From: a virus
Lineage: Duplodnaviria; Heunggongvirae; Uroviricota; Caudoviricetes
Strand: one strand, 5' to 3'
Length of the DNA: 8,704 nucleotides
IMG/VR virus record: IMGVR_UViG_2609460344_000011
Coordinates: 1-8,704 of that record
Positions 1 through 8,704 of the stretch are shown in pieces. The position numbers were made by a program, and so were the translations under genes. Each line of letters begins with the position of its first letter. Positions within the stretch are counted from its first letter, which is position 1. The notes under the pieces are model-generated. The model was not told the DNA's origin. It saw only the letters and a list, made by a program, of their open reading frames with translations, and ran no database searches.

Positions 1-86
1 TTTCCACCCCTGTACGTCTCACCACCTATATGGTCGTGGAAAGCCTTGGTGGTGAGTTCATTGAATTCAACATAGGGGCTGTCACC

Positions 87-632
87 ATGACTACTCTCCC
101 AACCCAATCTCACCCTGAAATCACGATTATCAATGGTCGCGTTGTCACCACATCTCTTGCAGTAGCTAATTACTTTACTAAACGGCATGAGCGGGTTTTA
201 GATAGAATTAGAAACCTCGAATGTTCCGCTGAATTTACTGAACACAATTTTGTGTTAAGTGAATACACCGACGCATCAGGCCGCAAACTCCCTTGTTACC
301 AAATCACCCGCGACGGTTTTGCGTTTCTTGCCATGGGCTTCACTGGTAAACGTGCTGCCCGGTTCAAAGAGGCATACATAAATGCCTTTAACCAGATGGA
401 AAAACTGCTTTCAAAGCCATCCACGCTGAGCGATGCCGCAGATAACGCCAGCGTGCTTTACTCCCACCTGTCGGTAATCCACAAGGTCTGGCTGCAGCAG
501 CTTTATCCCATGTTGGCAAAAGCCGAATCCCCGCTGGCTGTAAGTCTGTATGACCGCATCAACGACGCGGCGCTACTGGCCAGTCTCATAAATTTGTCGC
601 TGAACCCTTCAGAGGTAAGGGGGCGTAAATGA
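87..632 (+). CDS. Rha-family phage regulatory protein (antirepressor-like)
   Basis: ATG at 87 preceded by GGGG (75-78). The ORF is open from 30, but the N-terminus MTTLPTQSHPEITIINGRVVTTSLAVANYFTKRHERVLDRIRN fits the Rha-domain pattern recalled from memory. Stop TGA 630-632 overlaps the next ATG. Confidence 0.65.
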   Translation: MTTLPTQSHPEITIINGRVVTTSLAVANYFTKRHERVLDRIRNLECSAEFTEHNFVLSEYTDASGRKLPCYQITRDGFAFLAMGFTGKRAARFKEAYINAFNQMEKLLSKPSTLSDAADNASVLYSHLSVIHKVWLQQLYPMLAKAESPLAVSLYDRINDAALLASLINLSLNPSEVRGRK

Positions 633-853
633 TCCGGAATATTTTCAAACGGTTTACCAATCATACTTTCTGTTGTCCTCGTCCGGGTCAGTGGTACACC
701 ACGCCTGCAGGGCATGTTCTACGTGTTAGCCTGGTTGACCGTGAATGTCAGAAGGTGATTTGTGAACCGCTGGGCCGTAATTACCGCGTCAGTATGCCGC
801 TTATAGCCTTTTGCTCCGGAAAAAACATGAAGCATCTCGGAGGTGCTGCATGA
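629..853 (+). CDS. hypothetical small protein (74 aa), translationally coupled between Rha and the O-like gene
   Basis: ATG 629 overlaps the upstream stop (ATGA). Purine-rich SD-like GAGGTAAGGGGG at 611-622. Its stop TGA 851-853 overlaps the next start at 850. No recognisable domain. Confidence 0.45.
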   Translation: MIRNIFKRFTNHTFCCPRPGQWYTTPAGHVLRVSLVDRECQKVICEPLGRNYRVSMPLIAFCSGKNMKHLGGAA

Positions 854-1668
854 GTATGGAGTTGATGGTTAAAGCGATGAAAATTCGAGTGGGAAATCCA
901 TTGCGAAAACTGGTTCTGATTAAGCTGGCTGATAATGCCAGCGATCAGGGTGAGTGCTGGCCCAGCTATCAGCATATCGCTGATCAGTGCGAGATTAGCA
1001 AACGTTCTGTGATGAATCATATTGCGGCCCTCTGTGAGTCCGGGCTGGTAAAAAAAGTCACCCGGAAAGGTGAAAAAGGTAACTCAAGTAATATCTATCT
1101 CCTTCATCTGGATGGTGCAGGAGATTCACTAGGGGGTAGTGCAAATAATTCACTATCTGGTGCAGCAAATTCACCAGGTAGTGCAGGAGTTGCACCAGGG
1201 GGTAGTGCAGGAGATTCACCCAGAACCAGTCACTCTTTTGAACCAGTCAAAGAACCAGTCAATGAACCAATAGCTGTTGGTGAATCTGCTGATGAGTCTG
1301 TGCGAGTTCGTTCAAACCGACCGGAATACTCTCCGGAGTTTGAGCAGGCATGGCTGGCATACCCCAAACGTGCTGGTGGCAATTCAAAATCTGCAGCCTT
1401 CAAAGCCTGGAAAGCCCGTTTGAATGAGGGGGTAAACCCCGAAACCATGCTGGAAGGTGTGAAACGCTACGCGGGCTGGGTATCTGCGATGGGTAACAGC
1501 GGCACACAATTTGTGAAACAGGCTGTCACGTTCTTTGGTCCGGATCGTCATTTCGAAGAATCCTGGGAAGTTCCTGCGGTATCTGCAGCCAGACGCGAGG
1601 ACCCGTACTTCAAAGCCAGTTACGACAACGTGGACTACAGCCAGATCCCGGAAGGATTCAGGGGGTGA
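850..1668 (+). CDS. lambdoid replication initiator O-like protein (N-terminal HTH domain, Gly/Ser/Ala linker, C-terminal domain)
   Basis: ATG 850 with GGAGG at 838-842. N-terminal segment LRKLVLIKLADNASDQGECWPSYQHIADQCEISKRSVMNHIAALCESGLV matches the helix-turn-helix typical of phage O-type replication protein N-termini. A low-complexity linker follows, encoded by iteron-like DNA repeats. Confidence 0.65.
   Translation: MSMELMVKAMKIRVGNPLRKLVLIKLADNASDQGECWPSYQHIADQCEISKRSVMNHIAALCESGLVKKVTRKGEKGNSSNIYLLHLDGAGDSLGGSANNSLSGAANSPGSAGVAPGGSAGDSPRTSHSFEPVKEPVNEPIAVGESADESVRVRSNRPEYSPEFEQAWLAYPKRAGGNSKSAAFKAWKARLNEGVNPETMLEGVKRYAGWVSAMGNSGTQFVKQAVTFFGPDRHFEESWEVPAVSAARREDPYFKASYDNVDYSQIPEGFRG
1111..1221. 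repeat. iteron-like direct repeats inside the O-like gene (candidate replication origin)
   Basis: GTGCAGGAGATTCAC occurs at 1115-1129 and 1205-1219. GGGGGTAGTGCA occurs at 1132-1143 and 1198-1209. ATTCAC recurs at 1124, 1148, 1169 and 1214, giving a roughly 21-24 bp period. Further degenerate copies (GGTAGTGCAGGAG at 1177) lie between. Confidence 0.4.
1240..1271. repeat. short tandem repeat GAACCAGTCAA x2 plus a partial copy, encoding EPVKEPVNEP
   Basis: GAACCAGTCAA at 1240-1250 and 1252-1262, then GAACCAA at 1265-1271, immediately 3' of the iteron-like block. Confidence 0.4.
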
Positions 1669-1670
1669 TC

Positions 1671-2159
1671 ATGAGTCTTTTGAATGAAGTTCAGAAATTC
1701 ATTGAAGCCCATCCGGGGTGTACTTCCGGAGACATTGCGGATGCTTTTGCAGGTTACTCACGGCAGCGCGTTCTGCAGTCAGCAAGCAAGTTACGTCAGA
1801 GTGGGCGTGTGGCTCACCGTTGTGAAGGAGATACACGCAGACATTTCCCGCGCCTGACTGAGAGAGCACAGGAGCCGGAACCACAACCAGTTCGTGAAAC
1901 CAGACCTGTGCGCAATTTCTGTGTCGGCACTAACGACCCGCAGGTGATTTTGTGCCTGACTCGCCAGGCGGAAGAACTGGAGTCCAGGGGCTTATTCCGT
2001 CGAGCTGCAACGGTGTGGATGGAGGCATTCCGTGAAAGCCACTCCCAGCCAGAACGAAACAATTTTCTGGCGCATCGTGAGCGGTGCTTACGGAAAAGCA
2101 GCAAGCGCGCTGCATCGGGTGAAGAGTGGTATCTGTCAGGGAATTACGTGGGGGCTTAA
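1671..2159 (+). CDS. PerC-like transcriptional regulator domain protein with N-terminal winged-helix-like region
   Basis: ATG 1671 with AGGGGG at 1659-1664; the upstream stop TGA 1666-1668 lies just before it. C-terminal segment ESRGLFRRAATVWMEAFRESHSQPERNNFLAHRERCLRK fits the recalled PerC/Pch signature (GLxRRAAxxW ... RRxxC). The N-terminal half looks like a small wHTH. Confidence 0.5.
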   Translation: MSLLNEVQKFIEAHPGCTSGDIADAFAGYSRQRVLQSASKLRQSGRVAHRCEGDTRRHFPRLTERAQEPEPQPVRETRPVRNFCVGTNDPQVILCLTRQAEELESRGLFRRAATVWMEAFRESHSQPERNNFLAHRERCLRKSSKRAASGEEWYLSGNYVGA

Positions 2160-2812
2160 TGAGTAATAAATATTGCCAGGCGCTGGTGGAGCTGCGGAAC
2201 AAACCAGCCCATGAACTGAAGGAAGTGGGCGATCAGTGGCGCACGCCGGACAACATTTTCTGGGGAATTAACACCCTGTTTGGCCCGTTTGTTCTGGATC
2301 TGTTCACTGATGGTGATAACGCCAAATGTGCCGCTTATTACACTGCGGAAGACAACGCGCTGGCGCATGACTGGTCTGAACGTCTTGCGGAGCTTAAAGG
2401 TGCTGCCTTTGGTAATCCCCCGTACAGCCGCGCCAGTCAGCATGAGGGGCAATACATCACCGGCATGCGTTACATCATGAAACATGCCAGTGCCATGCGT
2501 GATAAAGGCGGGCGCTATGTTTTCCTGATCAAAGCTGCCACCAGCGAAGTGTGGTGGCCGGAAGATGCAGATCATATTGCTTTTATTCGCGGGCGTATTG
2601 GTTTTGAACTGCCTGCCTGGTTTATCCCGAAAGACGAAAAGCAGGTGCCAACAGGTGCTTTCTTCGCTGGTGCTATTGCTGTTTTCGACAAGACCTGGAA
2701 GGGACCGGCAATCAGCTACATAGGGCGCGATGAACTTGAGGCATGTGGTGAGGCGTTTCTGGCGCAGGTTCGCCAGCAGGCGGAAAAACTGGTCAGGGAG
2801 ATGGCGGCATGA
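2159..2812 (+). CDS. phage Dam-family N6-adenine DNA methyltransferase
   Basis: ATG 2159 overlaps the upstream stop TAA 2157-2159, with a G-run at 2150-2154. Contains the GNPPY catalytic-type motif (N/DPPY class) and overall resemblance to phage N-6-adenine methyltransferases. Confidence 0.75.
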   Translation: MSNKYCQALVELRNKPAHELKEVGDQWRTPDNIFWGINTLFGPFVLDLFTDGDNAKCAAYYTAEDNALAHDWSERLAELKGAAFGNPPYSRASQHEGQYITGMRYIMKHASAMRDKGGRYVFLIKAATSEVWWPEDADHIAFIRGRIGFELPAWFIPKDEKQVPTGAFFAGAIAVFDKTWKGPAISYIGRDELEACGEAFLAQVRQQAEKLVREMAA

Positions 2813-3135
2813 CGACATTAACTCAATGCCAGCAGCAGGTGCTGGATATGCTGATTTCTTATCAGAAAGAACGTGGCTTCCCGCCAACCAATCAGGAGGT
2901 GGCAACCATGCTGGGATACCGTTCGGTGAATGCAGCGGTGGAGCATCTTCGCGCACTGGAGAAAAAAGGTGTCATCACGATAAAGCGTGGCGTGGCCCGG
3001 GGTATCACTCTTCATACCGCGGTGAAGGACGACGACAGCGAGGCGGTCGGGATTATCCGCGCCCTGCTTGCCGGTGAGGCAAACGCCAGGCTGCGTGCAG
3101 CCCACTGGTTACATGAGAGGGGCCTGAAAGTATGA
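2809..3135 (+). CDS. LexA N-terminal DNA-binding domain homologue lacking the S24 peptidase domain
   Basis: ATG 2809 overlaps the upstream stop (ATGA). Residues 1-68 align without gaps to the E. coli LexA N-terminal domain as recalled: LTxxQQxVxDxI ... GxPPTxxExAxxLGxRSxNAAxEHLxALxxKGVIxI ... RGIxL. The protein ends at 108 aa with no catalytic Ser/Lys domain. Confidence 0.75.
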   Translation: MTTLTQCQQQVLDMLISYQKERGFPPTNQEVATMLGYRSVNAAVEHLRALEKKGVITIKRGVARGITLHTAVKDDDSEAVGIIRALLAGEANARLRAAHWLHERGLKV

Positions 3136-3527
3136 AGCTAATACTGCCTTTTCCGCCCAGCGTGAACACGTACTGGCGACACCCCAACAAAGGGGCGTTT
3201 GCTGGTAAGAGCCTGATAAGCGCGGCGGGGCGAAAATTCCAGAGCGCGGCGTGTGCAGCAATAGTTGAGCAGTTACGTCGTCTGCCGAAACCAACGTCGG
3301 CACCTGCTTCAGTGGAGATCGTGTTGTTTCCTCCGGATAACCGGATCCGCGATCTGGACAACTATAACAAGGCGCTGTTTGACGCCCTGACCCACGCGGG
3401 TGTGTGGGAAGACGACAGTCAGGTGAAAAGAATGCTGGTGGAGTGGGGACCGGTTATCCCGGAGGGGAAGGTCGAGATCACTATCAGTAAGTACGAAAAA
3501 GCGAGTTGCAAATTAGCAACTCGGTAA
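3132..3527 (+). CDS. rusA: RusA-family Holliday junction resolvase (crossover junction endodeoxyribonuclease)
   Basis: ATG 3132 overlaps the upstream stop (ATGA), with GAGAGGGG upstream. N-terminal LILPFPPSVNTYWR and the acidic core DLDNYNKALFDALTHAGVWEDDSQV match RusA family signatures. Confidence 0.85.
   Translation: MKLILPFPPSVNTYWRHPNKGAFAGKSLISAAGRKFQSAACAAIVEQLRRLPKPTSAPASVEIVLFPPDNRIRDLDNYNKALFDALTHAGVWEDDSQVKRMLVEWGPVIPEGKVEITISKYEKASCKLATR
3502..3523. repeat. perfect 8-bp inverted repeat CGAGTTGC-N6-GCAACTCG at the 3' end of rusA
   Basis: CGAGTTGC (3502-3509) and GCAACTCG (3516-3523) are exact reverse complements. No U-tract follows, so it is more likely an operator or RNA stem than an intrinsic terminator. 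Confidence 0.35.
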
Positions 3528-3572
3528 CGGAATTGAGCAACACCCTAAATTTGGGTATTACCTCGTTAAAGA

Positions 3573-3592
3573 TACTGTATTTATGAACAGTG
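3573..3592. promoter_or_regulatory. LexA (SOS) box, consensus CTGT-N8-ACAG
   Basis: TACTGTATTTATGAACAGTG: CTGT at 3575-3578, an AT-rich 8-nt spacer, ACAG at 3587-3590. Candidate sigma70 elements TTGATA (3598-3603)-N17-TAAGTT (3621-3626) lie immediately downstream, before the KilA-N gene start at 3690. Confidence 0.7.
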
Positions 3593-3689
3593 TATCCTTG
3601 ATAACTATTAAAAATCGCAGTAAGTTCATCCTGCATCAACGAAAAGGGAGTGCAGTCCCGCTCGTGGATAAAAATTTGTGGAGAAACCA

Positions 3690-4505
3690 ATGAATCAGTT
3701 GCTTGTAATTGATGGCGTTTCTGTGCGTCAGTACTTCGAATCTAACTACTGTCTTAACGACCTTCAGAAAGCTGCTCTTCTTGCCGCTGGTGAGAATCGC
3801 TCCTCCCGTTCGCTGGAAGTTCACGAGTTTATGCGTCGTCCTGAAACGAAGGCTCTTGTGGAATTATTGGAAGAAGAAACTACGGGAGATTCCCGTAGTA
3901 TTCCTGTCATCACCATTCAGGGGCGCAATGGTGGGACGTATGTCTGTAAAGAGCTGGTCTATGCATATGCAATGTGGATCAGCCCGGCATTCAGCTTAAA
4001 AGTGATACGTACTTTTGATGCGCTTCATAATTCATCACCAGAAGAAACCACATCCGACAAAATTAAATCCGGGGTCATTCTGCTTGAATCAGCAGCAAAG
4101 ACTCTAAATCTGTCAAACTCCTCGAAACTTGGTGCATACCAGAAATTATCAAAGGTAGCTGGTCTTCCTGAACTTATGCCGATCTATGCCATTGATGCAC
4201 CTGCTGATGCGCCAGATGGTTCAAGCCGCCCTACGCTGTCGCTGAGTGCACTGCTGAAGCAGTATGGTATCCGCCTGACGGCTAATCAGGCATATCACCA
4301 GATGGCGAAGCTGGGGATCGTTGAACAACGCGAACGATACAGCCGTACCGCGATTAACAACATCAAAAAATTCTGGTCGCTGACCGCGAAAGGCTGCATG
4401 TTCGGCAAGAACATCACCAGTCCTGCAAATCCGCGCGAGACGCAGCCGCATTTCTTCGAATCCCGATTTCCTGAGCTGTTAAAGCTGCTCGATACCGTTC
4501 ATTGA
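3690..4505 (+). CDS. KilA-N domain protein, probable SOS-controlled antirepressor-like protein
   Basis: ATG 3690 with GGAG at 3680-3683. The N-terminal 110 aa (YCLNDLQKAALL ... IQGRNGGTYVCKELVYAYAMWISPAFSLKVIRTFDAL) fit the KilA-N domain pattern. Preceded by the LexA box. Confidence 0.7.
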   Translation: MNQLLVIDGVSVRQYFESNYCLNDLQKAALLAAGENRSSRSLEVHEFMRRPETKALVELLEEETTGDSRSIPVITIQGRNGGTYVCKELVYAYAMWISPAFSLKVIRTFDALHNSSPEETTSDKIKSGVILLESAAKTLNLSNSSKLGAYQKLSKVAGLPELMPIYAIDAPADAPDGSSRPTLSLSALLKQYGIRLTANQAYHQMAKLGIVEQRERYSRTAINNIKKFWSLTAKGCMFGKNITSPANPRETQPHFFESRFPELLKLLDTVH

Positions 4506-4506
4506 G

Positions 4507-5502
4507 GTGACTGTGAGAGCACTACTGACCCCTGAAATTGCCCCGCGTATGGGGATCGTATTGTTCAGGCCAGGTTCAGAGCTGATGCCCCTGTTTATGC
4601 AGGGGCGTGTCCTGCTGGAGCCTGAGCCGGAGCGTTATTCATCTTTCGCCAGTGGTGCCGTTCCGGCGGCATCACAACCGCTGGCGGATGATCCTGCCGT
4701 TCGGGCCGTGTTCCGCCATGAGGCAGTGATCCGTCGTGCTGGTGGCGTGGAATGTCTTGAAAGCTGGTTACTTCGTGAAAAAGGCTGCCAGTGGCCTCAT
4801 TCCGGATGGCACAGCGAGAACATGACCACAATGCGACACGCTCCGGGCGCAATCCGTCTGTGCTGGCACTGCGATAACCAGCTGCGCGATCAGTTCACGG
4901 AACGGCTGGAATCAATGGCAACGGATAACTGTGCCCGCTGGGTGTTGTCTGTTGTGCGTCGGGATCTCGGTTTTGATGACAGTCACGTTGTGACAATGCC
5001 GGAACTGTGCTGGTGGCTGATTCGTAATGACCTGGCGGATGCCTTACCGGAAAGTGCAGCCCGTAAGGCACTGAGATTACCGAAGCCTGTTGTGCCGTCT
5101 GTCACCCGGGAAAGTGACCTTGTGCCTTCGGTTCCTGCCACCAGCATCATCCAGGATAAAGCGAAAAAGGTGCTGGCGCTGAAAGTGGATCCGGAGTCGC
5201 CGGAGTCTTTTATGTTACGCCCCAAACGTCGCCGCTGGGTTAATGAAAAGTACACGCGCTGGGTTAAGACGCAGCCGTGTGCATGTTGTGGAAAGCCTGC
5301 TGATGATCCCCACCACCTGATAGGCCACGGTCAGGGGGGAATGGGTACAAAAGCGCATGACCTCTTCGTGCTGCCTTTGTGCAGAAAGCATCACGACGAG
5401 CTGCATGCGGATACCGTGGCATTTGAAGAGAAGTATGGCTCCCAGCTGGAGCTGATATTTCGTTTTATCGATCGTGCGCTGGCAATAGGCGTGCTGGCCT
5501 GA
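4507..5502 (+). CDS. DUF968-family protein with C-terminal HNH-like Cys/His motif
   Basis: C-terminal CACCGKPADDPHHLIGHGQGGMGTKAHDLFVLPLCRKHHDELH resembles the DUF968 family found next to Q in E. coli prophages. The start is uncertain: GTG 4507, GTG 4513 or ATG 4549, none with a strong SD. Confidence 0.6.
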   Translation: MTVRALLTPEIAPRMGIVLFRPGSELMPLFMQGRVLLEPEPERYSSFASGAVPAASQPLADDPAVRAVFRHEAVIRRAGGVECLESWLLREKGCQWPHSGWHSENMTTMRHAPGAIRLCWHCDNQLRDQFTERLESMATDNCARWVLSVVRRDLGFDDSHVVTMPELCWWLIRNDLADALPESAARKALRLPKPVVPSVTRESDLVPSVPATSIIQDKAKKVLALKVDPESPESFMLRPKRRRWVNEKYTRWVKTQPCACCGKPADDPHHLIGHGQGGMGTKAHDLFVLPLCRKHHDELHADTVAFEEKYGSQLELIFRFIDRALAIGVLA

Positions 5503-5519
5503 TTTTGTGGAGAAAGTTG

Positions 5520-5891
5520 ATGCGTGATATTCAAATGGTTCTTGAACGTTGGGGGGCATGGGTGGCAAATAATCACGAGGATGTGGAATGGTCATCTGTT
5601 GCTGCAGGTTTTAAGGGATTAATTCCTTCGAAAGTAAAATCCCGCCCGCAATGTAGCGATGACGATGGCCTGATCATTAGCTCTGCGATGACAGTTCTTA
5701 AGAAAAAGGAACCGTATCAATACGAATTACTGGAAATGTATTATGTGTATGGGGTTACATTACGGGTGTTGGGGGTAAAACTGGGGATATCACTTAATCA
5801 GGTTGTTATCAGACTGCAGAAAGCTGAAGGGTTTATTGACGGTTGTCTGGCAATGTTGGGGGTATCTTTAGAAATTGATTGTTACATATAG
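5520..5891 (+). CDS. Q-like late-gene antiterminator (small, about 123 aa, quuD-type)
   Basis: ATG 5520 with GGAGA at 5509-5513. The size, the position after rusA/DUF968 and before the tRNA cluster, and the N-terminal MRDIQMVLERWGAW match my recollection of small Q antiterminators of E. coli prophages. Family assignment is from memory, not a search. Confidence 0.55.
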   Translation: MRDIQMVLERWGAWVANNHEDVEWSSVAAGFKGLIPSKVKSRPQCSDDDGLIISSAMTVLKKKEPYQYELLEMYYVYGVTLRVLGVKLGISLNQVVIRLQKAEGFIDGCLAMLGVSLEIDCYI

Positions 5892-5930
5892 TAATAAATT
5901 CAATCAAAGTAAATAATCATATTTTATTAT

Positions 5931-5963
5931 AACCTCCTGATGATACCTGTTCATTGGGAGGTT
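5931..5963 (+). promoter_or_regulatory. inverted repeat AACCTCC-N19-GGAGGTT that can sequester the Shine-Dalgarno of the downstream gene
   Basis: AACCTCC (5931-5937) is the exact reverse complement of GGAGGTT (5957-5963). The right arm contains the SD (GGGAGG 5956-5961) of the ATG at 5967. Candidate -10 hexamers TATTAT/TATAAC at 5925-5933. Confidence 0.35.
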
Positions 5964-5966
5964 ATT

Positions 5967-6584
5967 ATGGATAAAAATGTAGAGCATGTATTAGTTGATG
6001 CAATTGAAAATAAGCAATCTTTAACAGTCGTTTACTTAGGAGGGAGCCAGCCCGGAACATTAAGGAATATTTCTCCGATTAGTATAAATGGGGATAAATT
6101 GCGGGCAAGATGCCATAGTTCTGGAGCAGTAAAGGTTTTCAATCTTGGGAAAATACAGTTACCCAGTGACTCCTGCGCGGTATCTATGCACTATGGAGAT
6201 TTAGAAGTTAAAGCTTATGAGACGATGCAGAGCGTAAATGACAACTTTCATGCCCTTTATCCTGAAGGACGATGGGGTGTTGATTTTAATGAGCATCGCT
6301 TTGCTTTATTTGATTTTTTTAAAAACGGGAAACGAAAAAAAACGGCATTTATGGCAATTGAGTTCAGGGAAAGAGATGAAGAGAAAATAATAACAGGTGT
6401 AACAATTGATATTGGTATATCTGGAACAGTGATTTCTGAGAAGTCCCGAATCCCAAAAAGACGACCATGGGTAGTGGTTGGTCCCGAACACGGAGAATAC
6501 AGTACTTATTCAACTTTGGACAAGGCTGCTACAGCGTTTTTTGAGAGGCTTTCGTTGATAGCATCCGGCCTGGAAGATAATTGA
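5967..6584 (+). CDS. hypothetical protein (205 aa), AT-rich accessory gene of unknown function
   Basis: ATG 5967 with a perfect GGGAGG SD at 5956-5961; an alternative ATG at 5940 has no SD. No family recognised. Markedly AT-rich relative to the upstream genes (by eye). Hand count: 11 of 12 Arg codons are AGA/AGG/CGA/CGG and 6 of 14 Ile codons are ATA. Confidence 0.6.
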   Translation: MDKNVEHVLVDAIENKQSLTVVYLGGSQPGTLRNISPISINGDKLRARCHSSGAVKVFNLGKIQLPSDSCAVSMHYGDLEVKAYETMQSVNDNFHALYPEGRWGVDFNEHRFALFDFFKNGKRKKTAFMAIEFRERDEEKIITGVTIDIGISGTVISEKSRIPKRRPWVVVGPEHGEYSTYSTLDKAATAFFERLSLIASGLEDN

Positions 6585-6716
6585 TTTTATGTTTGGTATT
6601 CAGAGTTCGCCGTGCTTAAGAAAGTCAAGATTCTAAAAATACTGAATGAGCTACTTGTGTTATAACAAAAATGCTATTAGTGTGTTAAGAGTGGTTACTT
6701 CGCCACACAACTTAAC

Positions 6717-6738
6717 CCCGCCACTGAGCGGGTTTTTT
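6717..6738 (+). terminator. intrinsic terminator
   Basis: Stem CCCGC (6717-6721) / GCGGG (6728-6732), loop CACTGA, followed by T6 (6733-6738). Confidence 0.6.
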
Positions 6739-6788
6739 GTACCTGTAAACTTGGTGCAGTACAGTAAACACGCTGGTGGTCGTGAATA

Positions 6789-6815
6789 CTGGCTTTTTAT
6801 CTTGCTGGCTTTTTA
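6789..6815. repeat. 11-bp perfect direct repeat CTGGCTTTTTA x2 (candidate regulator-binding site)
   Basis: CTGGCTTTTTA at 6789-6799 and 6805-6815, a 16-bp centre-to-centre spacing, about 50-75 bp upstream of the ATG at 6863. Confidence 0.35.
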
Positions 6816-6862
6816 GACAAGAGTTATTGGTATGTCACGTTAACCGGAAAGGGTAAAAAGAC

Positions 6863-7060
6863 ATGCTGAAACAGCAGGATATGACAGAAACCGCCAGAGT
6901 TGTGTTTGATGAATTAAGCGTTACCGAACCGGCGACAGTCGGGGAGATTGCGCAGAATACTTACCTTTCACGCGAACGCTGCCAGTTAATACTGACCCAG
7001 CTTGTTATGGCGGGTCTGGCAGACTATCAGTGCGGTTGTTACAGACGCCTTCAGTCCTGA
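6863..7060 (+). CDS. hypothetical small protein (65 aa), possible winged-helix (PapI/FaeA-like) DNA-binding protein
   Basis: ATG 6863 with a weak purine-rich stretch GGAAAGGG upstream. A helix-turn-helix-like segment ATVGEIAQNTYLSRERCQLILTQLVMAGL. Bracketed by intrinsic terminators. Assignment is tentative. Confidence 0.4.
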   Translation: MLKQQDMTETARVVFDELSVTEPATVGEIAQNTYLSRERCQLILTQLVMAGLADYQCGCYRRLQS

Positions 7061-7073
7061 AGGCTTTTTATTT
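7047..7073 (+). terminator. intrinsic terminator overlapping the stop codon of the 65-aa ORF
   Basis: Stem GCCTTCA (7047-7053) / TGAAGGC (7058-7064), loop GTCC, followed by TTTTTATTT (7065-7073). Confidence 0.55.
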
Positions 7074-7194
7074 GTGGTGAATGGGCGGCTGGTGGGGGGG
7101 CGACACCTGTCAGTCCTTTGCTTATGTGTTGATGATAATTTACCTTTTGGGGCTATAATTGAGCTAACCAATTGCTAATGAAAGTAAAATTATA

Positions 7195-7908
7195 ATGGCT
7201 GTTGTCTGTTCAGTTATCATGGTTTGCTCCCCAATTAATATTTTTCTTGAAAAGGATACGTTGTCACTTAAGCCAGGCTCAGTTGTTCTGGCCACCAAAT
7301 GCATCAGGGAGCTTTTCCTTATGCATTATGGCAAAGTTAAAATTGTCGATATAAGCGAATCCGTCGTAAGTCAATATCTGGAAAGTCAGCATAAGCTGAC
7401 GAGGACTCGTCTGACTGACATTCCGCTTTACCTGTTGCTGGAACCCAACAATCCTGCGTTGGCTGCGGCTTTAATTACCAGCCAGGGATTTTCCGGAGAG
7501 GCCACGGATATGTTTCTTATGATGGCCTGCCTGTCTCTGTTTGAAACAGATGAACGGATGTCATTGTTTTTAAGTGGATGTTTATCCAGCATAAGTGCCA
7601 AAGTCAGGGCGATAATTCAGACAGATATATCAGCAAGCTGGACGCTTGGTGCGATTGCTCTACAGTTGCATATGAGTGAGAGTTTGTTAAAGACAAAACT
7701 GAAAAATGAAGGGGGCATGTTCAGTCGCTTGTTGCTGGAAGAGCGGATGCGTGTTGCTGTAAATATGTTATGTTCCCGGCATGGATATGGACAGGCTATA
7801 GCAGAAAAATGCGGTTATTCAAGCAGGTCCTACTTTATTTCTGTATTTCACCGCTATTATGGCTTCCCGCCAGACAGATATGTATCCAGGCAAGGGCTTG
7901 ATTATTGA
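7195..7908 (+). CDS. AraC-family transcriptional regulator (AppY/GadX/YdeO/Rns-like)
   Basis: C-terminal AraC-type HTH (WTLGAIALQLHMSESLLKTKLKNEGGMFSRLLLEERMRVAVNMLCSRHGYGQAIAEKCGYSSRSYFISVFHRYYGFPP). N-terminus MAVVCSVIMVC resembles the AppY-like subgroup as recalled. AT-rich, with 5 AGG, 1 AGA and 5 ATA codons by hand count. No clear SD; an alternative start is ATG 7219. Confidence 0.7.
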   Translation: MAVVCSVIMVCSPINIFLEKDTLSLKPGSVVLATKCIRELFLMHYGKVKIVDISESVVSQYLESQHKLTRTRLTDIPLYLLLEPNNPALAAALITSQGFSGEATDMFLMMACLSLFETDERMSLFLSGCLSSISAKVRAIIQTDISASWTLGAIALQLHMSESLLKTKLKNEGGMFSRLLLEERMRVAVNMLCSRHGYGQAIAEKCGYSSRSYFISVFHRYYGFPPDRYVSRQGLDY

Positions 7909-7936
7909 TTTTCATCTGATTATTATTTTTTGGCTC

Positions 7937-8012
7937 GGCCCTTTAGCTCAGTGGTGAGAGCGAGCGACTCATAATCGCCAGGTCGCTGGTTCAAATCCAG
8001 CAAGGGCCACCA
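7937..8012 (+). tRNA. tRNA with anticodon CAU, most likely tRNA-Ile2 (lysidine, reads AUA); generic annotation would be tRNA-Met
   Basis: Hand-folded cloverleaf: acceptor GGCCCTT/AAGGGCC, D-arm GCTC/GAGC, anticodon loop CTCATAA, T-arm GCTGG/CCAGC with TTCAAAT loop, encoded CCA. Close to E. coli ileX as recalled. Confidence 0.8.
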
Positions 8013-8019
8013 TCACATA

Positions 8020-8096
8020 CCGCCATTAGCTCATCAGGAAAGAGCGCCAGCCTTCGAAGCTGGCTGCGCGGGGTTCAAGTCCCCGATGGCGGTCCA
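8020..8096 (+). tRNA. tRNA-Arg, anticodon UCG (reads CGA/CGG)
   Basis: Acceptor CCGCCAT/ATGGCGG, D-arm GCTC/GAGC, anticodon stem CCAGC/GCTGG with loop CTTCGAA, T-arm CGGGG/CCCCG with TTCAAGT loop, encoded CCA. The C1-G72 first pair is unusual but the fold is complete. Confidence 0.75.
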
Positions 8097-8109
8097 TTAT
8101 CTGCATCAT

Positions 8110-8186
8110 GCGTTGTTAGCTCAGCCGGACAGAGCAATTGCCTTCTAAGCAATCGGTCACTGGTTCGAATCCAGTACAACGCGCCA
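8110..8186 (+). tRNA. tRNA-Arg, anticodon UCU (reads AGA/AGG), argU-like
   Basis: Acceptor GCGTTGT/ACAACGC, D-arm GCTC/GAGC, anticodon stem ATTGC/GCAAT with loop CTTCTAA, T-arm ACTGG/CCAGT with TTCGAAT loop, encoded CCA. Confidence 0.8.
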
Positions 8187-8200
8187 CACTTATTTTCCCT

Positions 8201-8227
8201 GGCTCGCTTTTGCGGGCCTTTTTTTTT
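8201..8227 (+). terminator. intrinsic terminator downstream of the tRNA cluster
   Basis: Stem GGCTCGC (8201-8207) / GCGGGCC (8212-8218) with one G-U pair, loop TTTT, followed by T9 (8219-8227). Confidence 0.65.
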
Positions 8228-8439
8228 AAATGTCTCACAATTCAGGCGGTTGACTGTTGTCTGGTTTGCGGGGAGTTTGTTAAAAGAAACTGGCATGGTG
8301 AATCCCCCTGTGCGGAGGGGCAATCAGCAACTGGTGTTTTGTCACCGACCCTTATCCTTTCTGTGCGGGTTCAGGTGCTGATACTGAACTCACCGGGAGG
8401 CACCCGGCACCATGCAATGGCACATAGCGCCACTCTCCA

Positions 8440-8463
8440 GCCCCTCTCCGGAGGGGCTTTCTT
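8440..8463 (+). terminator. GC-rich hairpin with weak T-rich tail (possible attenuator or terminator)
   Basis: Stem GCCCCTC (8440-8446) / GAGGGGC (8451-8457), loop TCCG, followed by TTTCTT. Confidence 0.35.
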
Positions 8464-8469
8464 ATGGAC

Positions 8470-8497
8470 AAAAAAATCCCGCGCTGGGAGACGCGGG
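8470..8497 (-). terminator. candidate minus-strand intrinsic terminator
   Basis: Stem CCCGCG (8478-8483) / CGCGGG (8492-8497) with an 8-nt loop, preceded on the + strand by A7 (8470-8476). On the minus strand this reads hairpin then U7. Confidence 0.35.
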
Positions 8498-8691
8498 CGG
8501 CAAGGAATAAACAACAAAACGTGAAGTAATATTTCAGTTGGCGAATAATATCCGACAGTAATCACTCTGCGCAATAGCGCGGCCTTTTTCGTATTGCGGG
8601 CTGTTGTCTATCTTCTGCCATTATCCTGTAACTTCCGGACTTCAGCCCGCTCCTCATTTTACTCACAATATTATCCAGGCCGGGAGGATTC

Positions 8692-8704
8692 ATGGCATTT
8701 AAAC
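8692..8704 (+). CDS. 5' end of an unidentified gene running out of the window (begins MAFK)
   Basis: ATG 8692 preceded by GGGAGG at 8681-8686 with 5-nt spacing. Only 4 codons are visible. Confidence 0.3.

Follow-up and report, generated by a model that had tools for sequence, protein, structure and literature searches.

A tRNA-Ile2, tRNA-Arg(UCG) and tRNA-Arg(UCU) gene trio downstream of Q in an stx-negative lambdoid prophage of Escherichia coli

The window analyzed here is a stretch of 8704 bases (positions 1 to 8704 of the IMG/VR virus record IMGVR_UViG_2609460344_000011), and the element under study is a cluster of three tRNA genes that occupies 250 bases of it (7937-8186). The trio is the long-known ileZ-argN-argO module of lambdoid prophages, which is already annotated in RefSeq and has been annotated since the first Shiga toxin (Stx) phage genomes. 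The finding is real but ordinary and matters little as a discovery. The module probably functions in codon supplementation, as a self-contained tRNA unit within the late operon. In sequence, the window matches part of the E. coli cM8a chromosome with 99.7% identity and many extraintestinal isolates, for example S88, with ∼97-98% identity. It represents a lambdoid prophage that is integrated adjoining mlrA/yehV in a human isolate lacking stx. The gene names ileZ, argN and argO rest on GenBank annotations and general knowledge, and a full-text literature search by these three names returned no relevant paper in the collection that was searched.

ARAGORN called three tRNA genes and no others in the window. 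All are encoded by the plus strand: ileZ, of the tRNA-Ile2 type with a CAU anticodon (7937-8012; tRNA-Ile in RefSeq), argN, a tRNA-Arg gene with a UCG anticodon (8020-8096), and argO, a tRNA-Arg gene with a UCU anticodon (8110-8186). The spacers between the genes are 7 bases (ileZ-argN) and 13 bases (argN-argO) long, and the 3′ CCA is encoded by each gene. The folds were accepted by the Rfam tRNA model with scores of 72.5, 58 and 70.1 bits for ileZ, argN and argO, respectively (the gathering score is 29). These calls matched to the base the coordinates and anticodons that had been proposed for the trio in an earlier sequence-only reading of the window. At a coverage of at least 80%, the cluster was found in 2578 of 5426 complete E. 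coli genomes (∼48%) and in 279 phage records, so it is not a chance pattern. It occurs at up to 13 places per complete E. coli genome, and the copy in strain 55989 is 100% identical to that in the window.

The CAU gene is labeled 'Met' by ARAGORN, which is the default reading of that anticodon. By sequence comparison, it is an ileX/ileY-type tRNA-Ile2 and not a Met tRNA. It is identical to K-12 ileY at 70 of 76 positions and to ileX at 68 of 76, but to metT/metU at only 54 of 77. The acceptor stem (GGCCCTT/AAGGGCC) is the same as in ileY, including the C4-G69 and C5-G68 pairs, which we take to be determinants used by TilS, whereas metT has U4 and A5. The anticodon loop (CTCATAA) is the same as in ileX, and the NCBI RefSeq annotation of the 99.7%-identical chromosome also lists the gene as tRNA-Ile. 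The CAU anticodon is expected to be converted to lysidine-AU by the host TilS, and the tRNA would then read AUA. All phage copies of ileZ contain A27·C43 (7963 and 7979 in the window) where host ileX and ileY contain G27·U43; both sides are changed and a non-Watson-Crick pair is again found at the top of the anticodon stem.

The second gene, argN, is expected from its anticodon to read CGA and CGG. The sequence-only reading had noted that tRNA-Arg(UCG) has no counterpart in K-12, and this agrees with the seven K-12 Arg tRNA genes that were looked up (four with ACG and one each with CCG, UCU and CCU), none of which has a UCG anticodon; to our knowledge, these seven are the complete set. The identity of argN to any K-12 Arg tRNA is at most 53 of 77 positions. 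Its anticodon loop is canonical. In an alignment with the K-12 Arg tRNAs, both argN and argO have A20 and C35, which are the major identity elements of arginyl-tRNA synthetase (ArgRS) in E. coli, with a purine at position 73 as a minor element. Every argN allele that was seen contains C1-G72, U73 and U15, unlike all K-12 Arg tRNAs. The third gene, argO, is expected to read AGA and AGG and would thereby duplicate what argU does in the host. It is identical to argU at 56 of 77 positions, with the loop CTTCTAA, A20 and G73 common to both, and the allele found in the window is the commonest among related loci (36 of 91). Minimum-energy folding was also tried as a test of tRNA-hood and proved uninformative: for argN it gave a cloverleaf with a Watson-Crick pair at each of the 21 stem positions, and for ileZ and argO, folded as unmodified single sequences, it gave other structures, while the covariance model and ARAGORN accept all three.

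Since it is flanked by a conserved promoter motif and a strong terminator, the trio looks like a transcription unit of its own (promoter 7898-7926, terminator 8201-8227). The candidate sigma-70 promoter, on the plus strand, consists of a −35 hexamer TTGATT (7898-7903), a 17-nucleotide spacer and a −10 hexamer TATTAT (7921-7926). It ends 10 nucleotides 5′ of ileZ and overlaps the stop codon of an AraC-like gene. A promoter scan of the single window was uninformative by itself (7 sites, with 6.4 expected), and the promoter call is based on cross-locus conservation together with a published start site. The 120 IMG/VR loci that were collected by an ileZ 38-mer contained 42 distinct upstream sequences. 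In 41 of these, TTGNNN and TAT(T/C)AT separated by 16-18 nucleotides occurred at a constant distance from ileZ, and the spacer was exactly 17 nucleotides in 37 of the 41. The hexamer columns are 83-98% conserved, compared with ∼50% further upstream, and the motif is kept across at least five unrelated contexts, such as the end of a methylase gene, a terminator that abuts the −35 hexamer, and the end of the AraC-like gene. In an Stx2a lysogen, transcription of the tRNAs has been mapped to a start site at the corresponding position (PMC7547250). From these observations we infer promoter function in the window. On the 3′ side, a terminator scan and folding identified an intrinsic-terminator-like hairpin on the plus strand, GGCTCGC-TTTT-GCGGGCC followed by nine T (8201-8227). 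The fold has an energy of −13.8 kcal/mol (z −3.9), none of 200 shuffled sequences was as stable, and the hairpin is kept after argO in Stx2a, Stx2k and stx-less phages.

The trio is also placed within a larger late region. The 5′ to 3′ order of the window is RusA, KilA-N and DUF968 genes, Q, cargo genes, the tRNA genes, the terminator, an STnc100-like small RNA (sRNA) and nanS-p, and beyond the window nanS-p is followed by holin, lysozyme, spanin, terminase and structural genes. The late antiterminator Q is a protein of 123 amino acids (5520-5891, plus strand) with a score of 161 bits against Pfam Phage_antitermQ and the RefSeq name 'antiterminator Q family protein'. Downstream of it, a plus-strand region (6679-6738) contains TGnTAAGAGTGGTTAC, followed by the hairpin CCCGCCACTGAGCGGG with a T run (6717-6738). 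This motif and the hairpin are also found directly after Q in the Stx2a phage L012 and in VT2-Sakai, whose Q is unrelated, and Stx phages have a constitutive late promoter PR′ and a terminator at that place (PMC7547250). Because the post-Q motif and hairpin are shared with Stx phages, we placed PR′ at ∼6680, and the region 6679-6738 is probably the late promoter and the first terminator, with the start site placed only approximately. Any of three downstream hairpins may be tR′ in this phage. The tRNA genes lie downstream of this probable PR′ region in the same orientation. Matching copies of the motif and of the hairpin with its T run lie at positions 2075-2130 of locus L133 and at about 755-805 of L012. 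Between 5400 and 8704, the window contains 16 terminator-like hairpins, mostly on the plus strand, compared with 3.5 expected from shuffled sequences; this excess fits a string of separately terminated cargo units that are read through only by Q-modified polymerase.

The correspondence with Stx phages extends to the sequence of the module itself. The cluster is 96.8% identical over its 250 bases to VT2-Sakai and to many Stx2a phages, and some of the records with this same match name the genes ileZ, argN and argO. The order and anticodons are also the same, as the sequence-only reading had recognized, and its description of the position as Stx-phage-like holds as well, the trio being located between Q and the nanS-p/lysis genes in the same place as in Stx phages. 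The same gene order is observed in Stx2k, stx-less, Stx2a and VT2-Sakai phages, and the published map gives the order Q, methylase, tRNA genes, stxAB, yjhS, lysis (PMC3491183). No stx gene was found in the window, as had been noted earlier, nor within 12 kb on either side of it. The window was aligned with the stx-less phage phi296 and with two Stx phages, one of type Stx2a and one of type Stx2k. The sequence that precedes stx2A in the Stx phages matches the window through the tRNA genes and the terminator as far as 8224-8227, and the match to the sequence that follows stx2B begins at 8231; phi296 is collinear with the window across the junction. On the basis of this alignment, the window carries an empty stx slot (8228-8231) at the junction where the Stx2a and Stx2k phages carry stx2AB; the T run of the argO terminator borders it on one side and the sRNA region on the other. 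The lack of stx, which the sequence-only reading had implied to be an oddity, is no such thing. The trio is present in 2578 complete E. coli genomes, the uninterrupted junction of argO, terminator and sRNA in 1015, and stx2AB in ∼600; the stx-less state is the commoner state of this backbone. The trio is thus a general feature of E. coli lambdoid prophages and no marker of Stx phages. The window offers a clean 'empty site' reference in which the insertion point of stx2AB is fixed within four bases (8227/8231).

Codon usage in 69 annotated genes of the prophage (12,625 codons) was compared with that in 41 chromosomal genes flanking it in the same strain (13,948 codons). Taken together, the five codons cognate to the three tRNAs account for 36.2 of every 1000 codons in the prophage and for 10.5 of every 1000 in the host genes (Fisher p 3e-42). 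When all 61 codons are ranked by the prophage/host ratio, AGG (7.9-fold), AGA (6.8-fold), AUA (3.9-fold) and CGA (3.4-fold) occupy ranks 1 to 4, and CGG (2.0-fold) occupies rank 6. The probability that five named codons fall in the top six by chance is ∼1e-6. The genes for a 205-amino-acid protein and for the AraC-like protein, which are located upstream of the tRNA genes and had been described as cargo rich in rare codons, do contain 83 and 59 cognate codons per 1000, respectively, compared with 35 per 1000 in the rest of the prophage and 10.5 in the host. When these two genes are combined with a 65-amino-acid open reading frame, the cargo contains 67 per 1000, a content ∼2-fold higher than the 35 per 1000 in the rest of the prophage (p 6e-4). 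A codon demand specific to the cargo was nevertheless rejected, as the integrase, the excisionase and several tail genes are equally rich. The rationale that the module supplies tRNAs for rare codons withstands the conditions under which the sequence-only reading would have given it up: the programs accept the folds and anticodons, and the cargo is rich in these codons relative to the rest of the prophage. The enrichment itself is prophage-wide. The location of the cargo upstream rather than downstream of the tRNA genes, which had also been implied to be unusual, has no bearing because tRNAs act in trans. In summary, the pattern of codon use is consistent with tRNAs that serve the prophage as a whole and not chiefly the cargo upstream of them. 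Rare tRNAs are known to limit the expression of genes rich in rare codons in E. coli (PMC2408971).

The supplementation model that we favor draws on gene identity, position, homology, codon statistics and the conservation of the promoter and terminator. According to this model, the trio would be part of the late operon, 3′ of Q and the probable PR′ and 5′ of nanS-p and the lysis genes. The tRNAs would be processed and charged by the host machinery, with TilS turning the CAU of ileZ into lysidine-AU, and would enlarge in trans the pool available for AUA (ileZ), CGA and CGG (argN), and AGA and AGG (argO). In the lysogen, the unit's own promoter would give a basal supply of tRNA from which the AT-rich cargo, such as the 205-amino-acid and AraC-like genes, may benefit. 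After induction, Q-dependent read-through from PR′ would raise this supply to the benefit of the late genes.

Variation of the module was examined in 115 IMG/VR loci with enough flanking sequence. The canonical trio was present in 58 of them. In 28 loci, Ile2 is accompanied by Arg(UCU), and the middle gene is decayed, deleted or fused to argO. A further 14 loci carry Ile2-Lys(UUU)-Thr(UGU)-Gly(UCC), two carry Ile2-Lys(UUU)-Arg(UCU), and in one (L039) the middle anticodon is changed from UCG to UCU by a single base. Comparison of these loci indicates that the middle position is the labile, remodeled one. In the decayed form (L023, about 2719-2818, and ∼25 other IMG/VR loci), the acceptor and D stems remain, but the T loop is missing and ∼27 unrelated bases take the place of the anticodon arm, and ARAGORN makes no call; a fusion of argN and argO was seen in L030. 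Alternative cassettes behind the same ileZ are located at 7193-7502 of L017, 649-958 of L054 and 1836-2076 of L025. The Lys(UUU) gene is built on the argN scaffold, but its anticodon arm is new and it has C33 in place of the near-universal U33. When 19 alleles of the middle tRNA were aligned, pairing was found in 96.7% of the stem cells, compared with 28-53% after the partners had been slid. Both partners are changed in three of the pairs (7:66, 27:43 and 30:40 in tRNA numbering), and all three separate the Lys forms from the Arg forms. This pattern suggests that selection acts on the structure of the middle tRNA.

Several observations weigh against codon supplementation by a functional late unit. 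The middle tRNA is dispensable in many relatives, being undetectable or fused in about a quarter of the 115 loci, and argN has 34 alleles in 62 loci compared with 26 alleles of argO in 91. As argN departs from the host Arg tRNAs in U73 and C1-G72, ArgRS may not charge it efficiently. Part of the codon correlation follows from the low G+C content of acquired DNA, which also accompanies the excess in the cargo (0.40 in the 205-amino-acid gene and 0.44 in the AraC-like gene, compared with 0.52 in host genes), and highly expressed structural genes avoid the codons in question: the major tail subunit contains none, and nanS-p contains 17 per 1000. The genome closest to the window, that of cM8a, has frameshifts annotated in the portal and tape-measure genes. 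The cM8a prophage may therefore be defective, with an incomplete lytic cycle, but indel errors in the assembly could also explain the frameshifts. Expression in this strain, aminoacylation, lysidine formation and an effect on translation are all inferred.

A different function could be proposed from the alternative cassettes. The module may be a set of spare parts for counter-defense, in which the tRNAs mainly replace host tRNAs that are cut by toxins or abortive-infection nucleases, for example of the colicin D type, and supplementation is secondary; we regard this as unlikely. It would account for the presence of Lys(UUU)-Thr(UGU)-Gly(UCC) and Lys(UUU)-Arg(UCU) in the same slot behind ileZ in relatives. 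Of the tRNAs in these cassettes, Lys(UUU) is targeted by PrrC and PARIS; since it is abundant in the host, its presence in a phage cassette cannot be put down to rarity. Thr(UGU) and Gly(UCC) rank among the foremost targets of the P2 OLD tRNase and among the tRNAs that it depletes most, and phages are rescued from this enzyme by phage tRNAs (bioRxiv 10.64898/2026.07.10.737580). The remodeled anticodon arm of the Lys form on the argN scaffold, with its three compensatory pair changes and C33, points in the same direction, and the stems of all three window tRNAs differ from those of their host counterparts, which leaves room for stem-directed nucleases. However, the loop mutations that are the signature of nuclease evasion are absent, as the loops of the window tRNAs are canonical and those of ileZ and argO are the same as in the host. 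The codons read by the window tRNAs are precisely the most over-used ones, and even the alternative cassettes fit codon usage, with AAG ranking 5th, GGA 8th and ACA 9th. PADLOC recognized no tRNA nuclease or defense gene next to the cluster and gave only sub-threshold WYL matches for the neighboring cargo genes. We know of no nuclease that singles out Ile2; for Arg tRNAs, colicin D is known. In an extended form of this proposal, the slot behind Q would be an exchangeable tRNA cassette shaped by both tRNA-targeting immunity and codon usage, the Arg(UCG)/Arg(UCU) pair would answer a toxin that cleaves Arg tRNAs, and U73, C1-G72 and U15 of argN would be evasion features and not drift. We consider this improbable as well.

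It is also conceivable, but very unlikely in our judgment, that the cluster is a passenger or a recombination anchor, that is, a conserved stretch between variable cargo slots in which the tRNAs, argN above all, have little or no effect on fitness. The boundaries of homology would suit such a role: similarity to Stx phages starts abruptly at 7933, four bases 5′ of ileZ, and ends at 8224-8227, and the cargo beyond these limits is unrelated, with either an AraC-like gene or a DNA methylase on the upstream side and either stx or nothing on the downstream side. The decay, fusion to argO or mutation of argN in many loci would also be compatible with it. In the window, however, all three genes keep perfect stems and the conserved tertiary positions, and argO is represented by the commonest allele. 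Stem pairing is kept across alleles with compensatory changes, and the genes are flanked by a conserved promoter and terminator, neither of which a mere recombination anchor would need. Codon supplementation by a tRNA unit within the late operon remains the explanation that we favor.

The remaining features of the window concern the cargo genes and the sRNA region. An AT-rich block (5892-6665; G+C content 0.40) is inserted between Q and the conserved post-Q motif. An Stx2a phage whose Q is related lacks this block, and there the homologue of window 6666-7096 directly follows Q. The block contains the open reading frame of the 205-amino-acid protein (5967-6584, plus strand), which belongs to phrog_8498, a family with no assigned function, and matches WYL with 16.5 bits, below the Pfam cut-off. 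An inverted repeat, AACCTCC...GGAGGTT, covers the ribosome-binding site of this gene. The 65-amino-acid open reading frame (6863-7060, plus strand) encodes a TrmB-like helix-turn-helix protein of phrog_331. It scores 17.8 bits against Pfam TrmB, below the cut-off, and has its own terminator (7047-7064); it is kept after the post-Q region in Stx2a and Stx2k phages. The AraC-type gene (7195-7908, plus strand) encodes a protein that aligns end-to-end with YdeO, a regulator of acid resistance, at a score of 108 bits, which is below the equivalog cut-off, and also with GadX. Prophage-borne regulators resembling those of the GAD island occur in enterohemorrhagic E. coli, namely PsrA/PsrB and PatE. 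The same AraC-type gene is located upstream of the tRNA genes in an Stx2k phage.

Directly 3′ of the empty stx slot, the plus-strand STnc100 match (8264-8469) covers the full length of the Rfam model with 143 bits (the gathering score is 47) and ends in a hairpin (8439-8458). According to a 2026 preprint, STnc100 is related to the PasD sRNAs, and an arrangement of sRNA, sialate esterase, holin and lysozyme is noted there. The nanS-p-type esterase gene, assigned from the annotated context, starts at 8695 on the plus strand. In the cM8a prophage (L010), the tail-fiber gene is annotated as partial, and the late region also contains ompC-like porin, sodC, ClpP-like and Lom genes.

When the module is compared with known systems, it most closely resembles that of the Stx phages 933W, VT2-Sakai/Sp5 and their relatives, with which it shares the order and anticodons of the tRNA genes, the late strand, the terminator hairpin, the promoter motif and the location between Q/PR′ and nanS-p. 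It differs from them in the absence of stx2AB between the terminator and the sRNA region, in its upstream neighbor (an AraC-like gene in place of a DNA methylase or tR′), in its Q, which is a small PF06530 protein of a different type from the Q of VT2-Sakai, and in the residence of the prophage at mlrA in an stx-negative human isolate. Phages SfI, Sf6, ST64T and 21 also carry tRNA genes in the same slot 3′ of Q, with the same proposed role in codon usage, but their tRNAs are different, namely Asn(GUU) and Thr(UGU) (PMC3636060). With the Thr(UGU) of Bas32, which acts against P2 OLD, the module has in common that phage-borne tRNA genes add to the host pool, and the slot in relatives also contains Thr(UGU). 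Unlike the nuclease-resistant tRNAs of virulent phages, the window tRNAs, known here from their sequence, have loops that do not deviate from those of the host. Among the host tRNAs, ileX and ileY share the anticodon and loop of ileZ, and ileY also its acceptor stem, the difference being the 27/43 pair, whereas argO has the loop, A20 and G73 of argU and yet is identical to it at only 56 of 77 positions, and argN is without a host counterpart.

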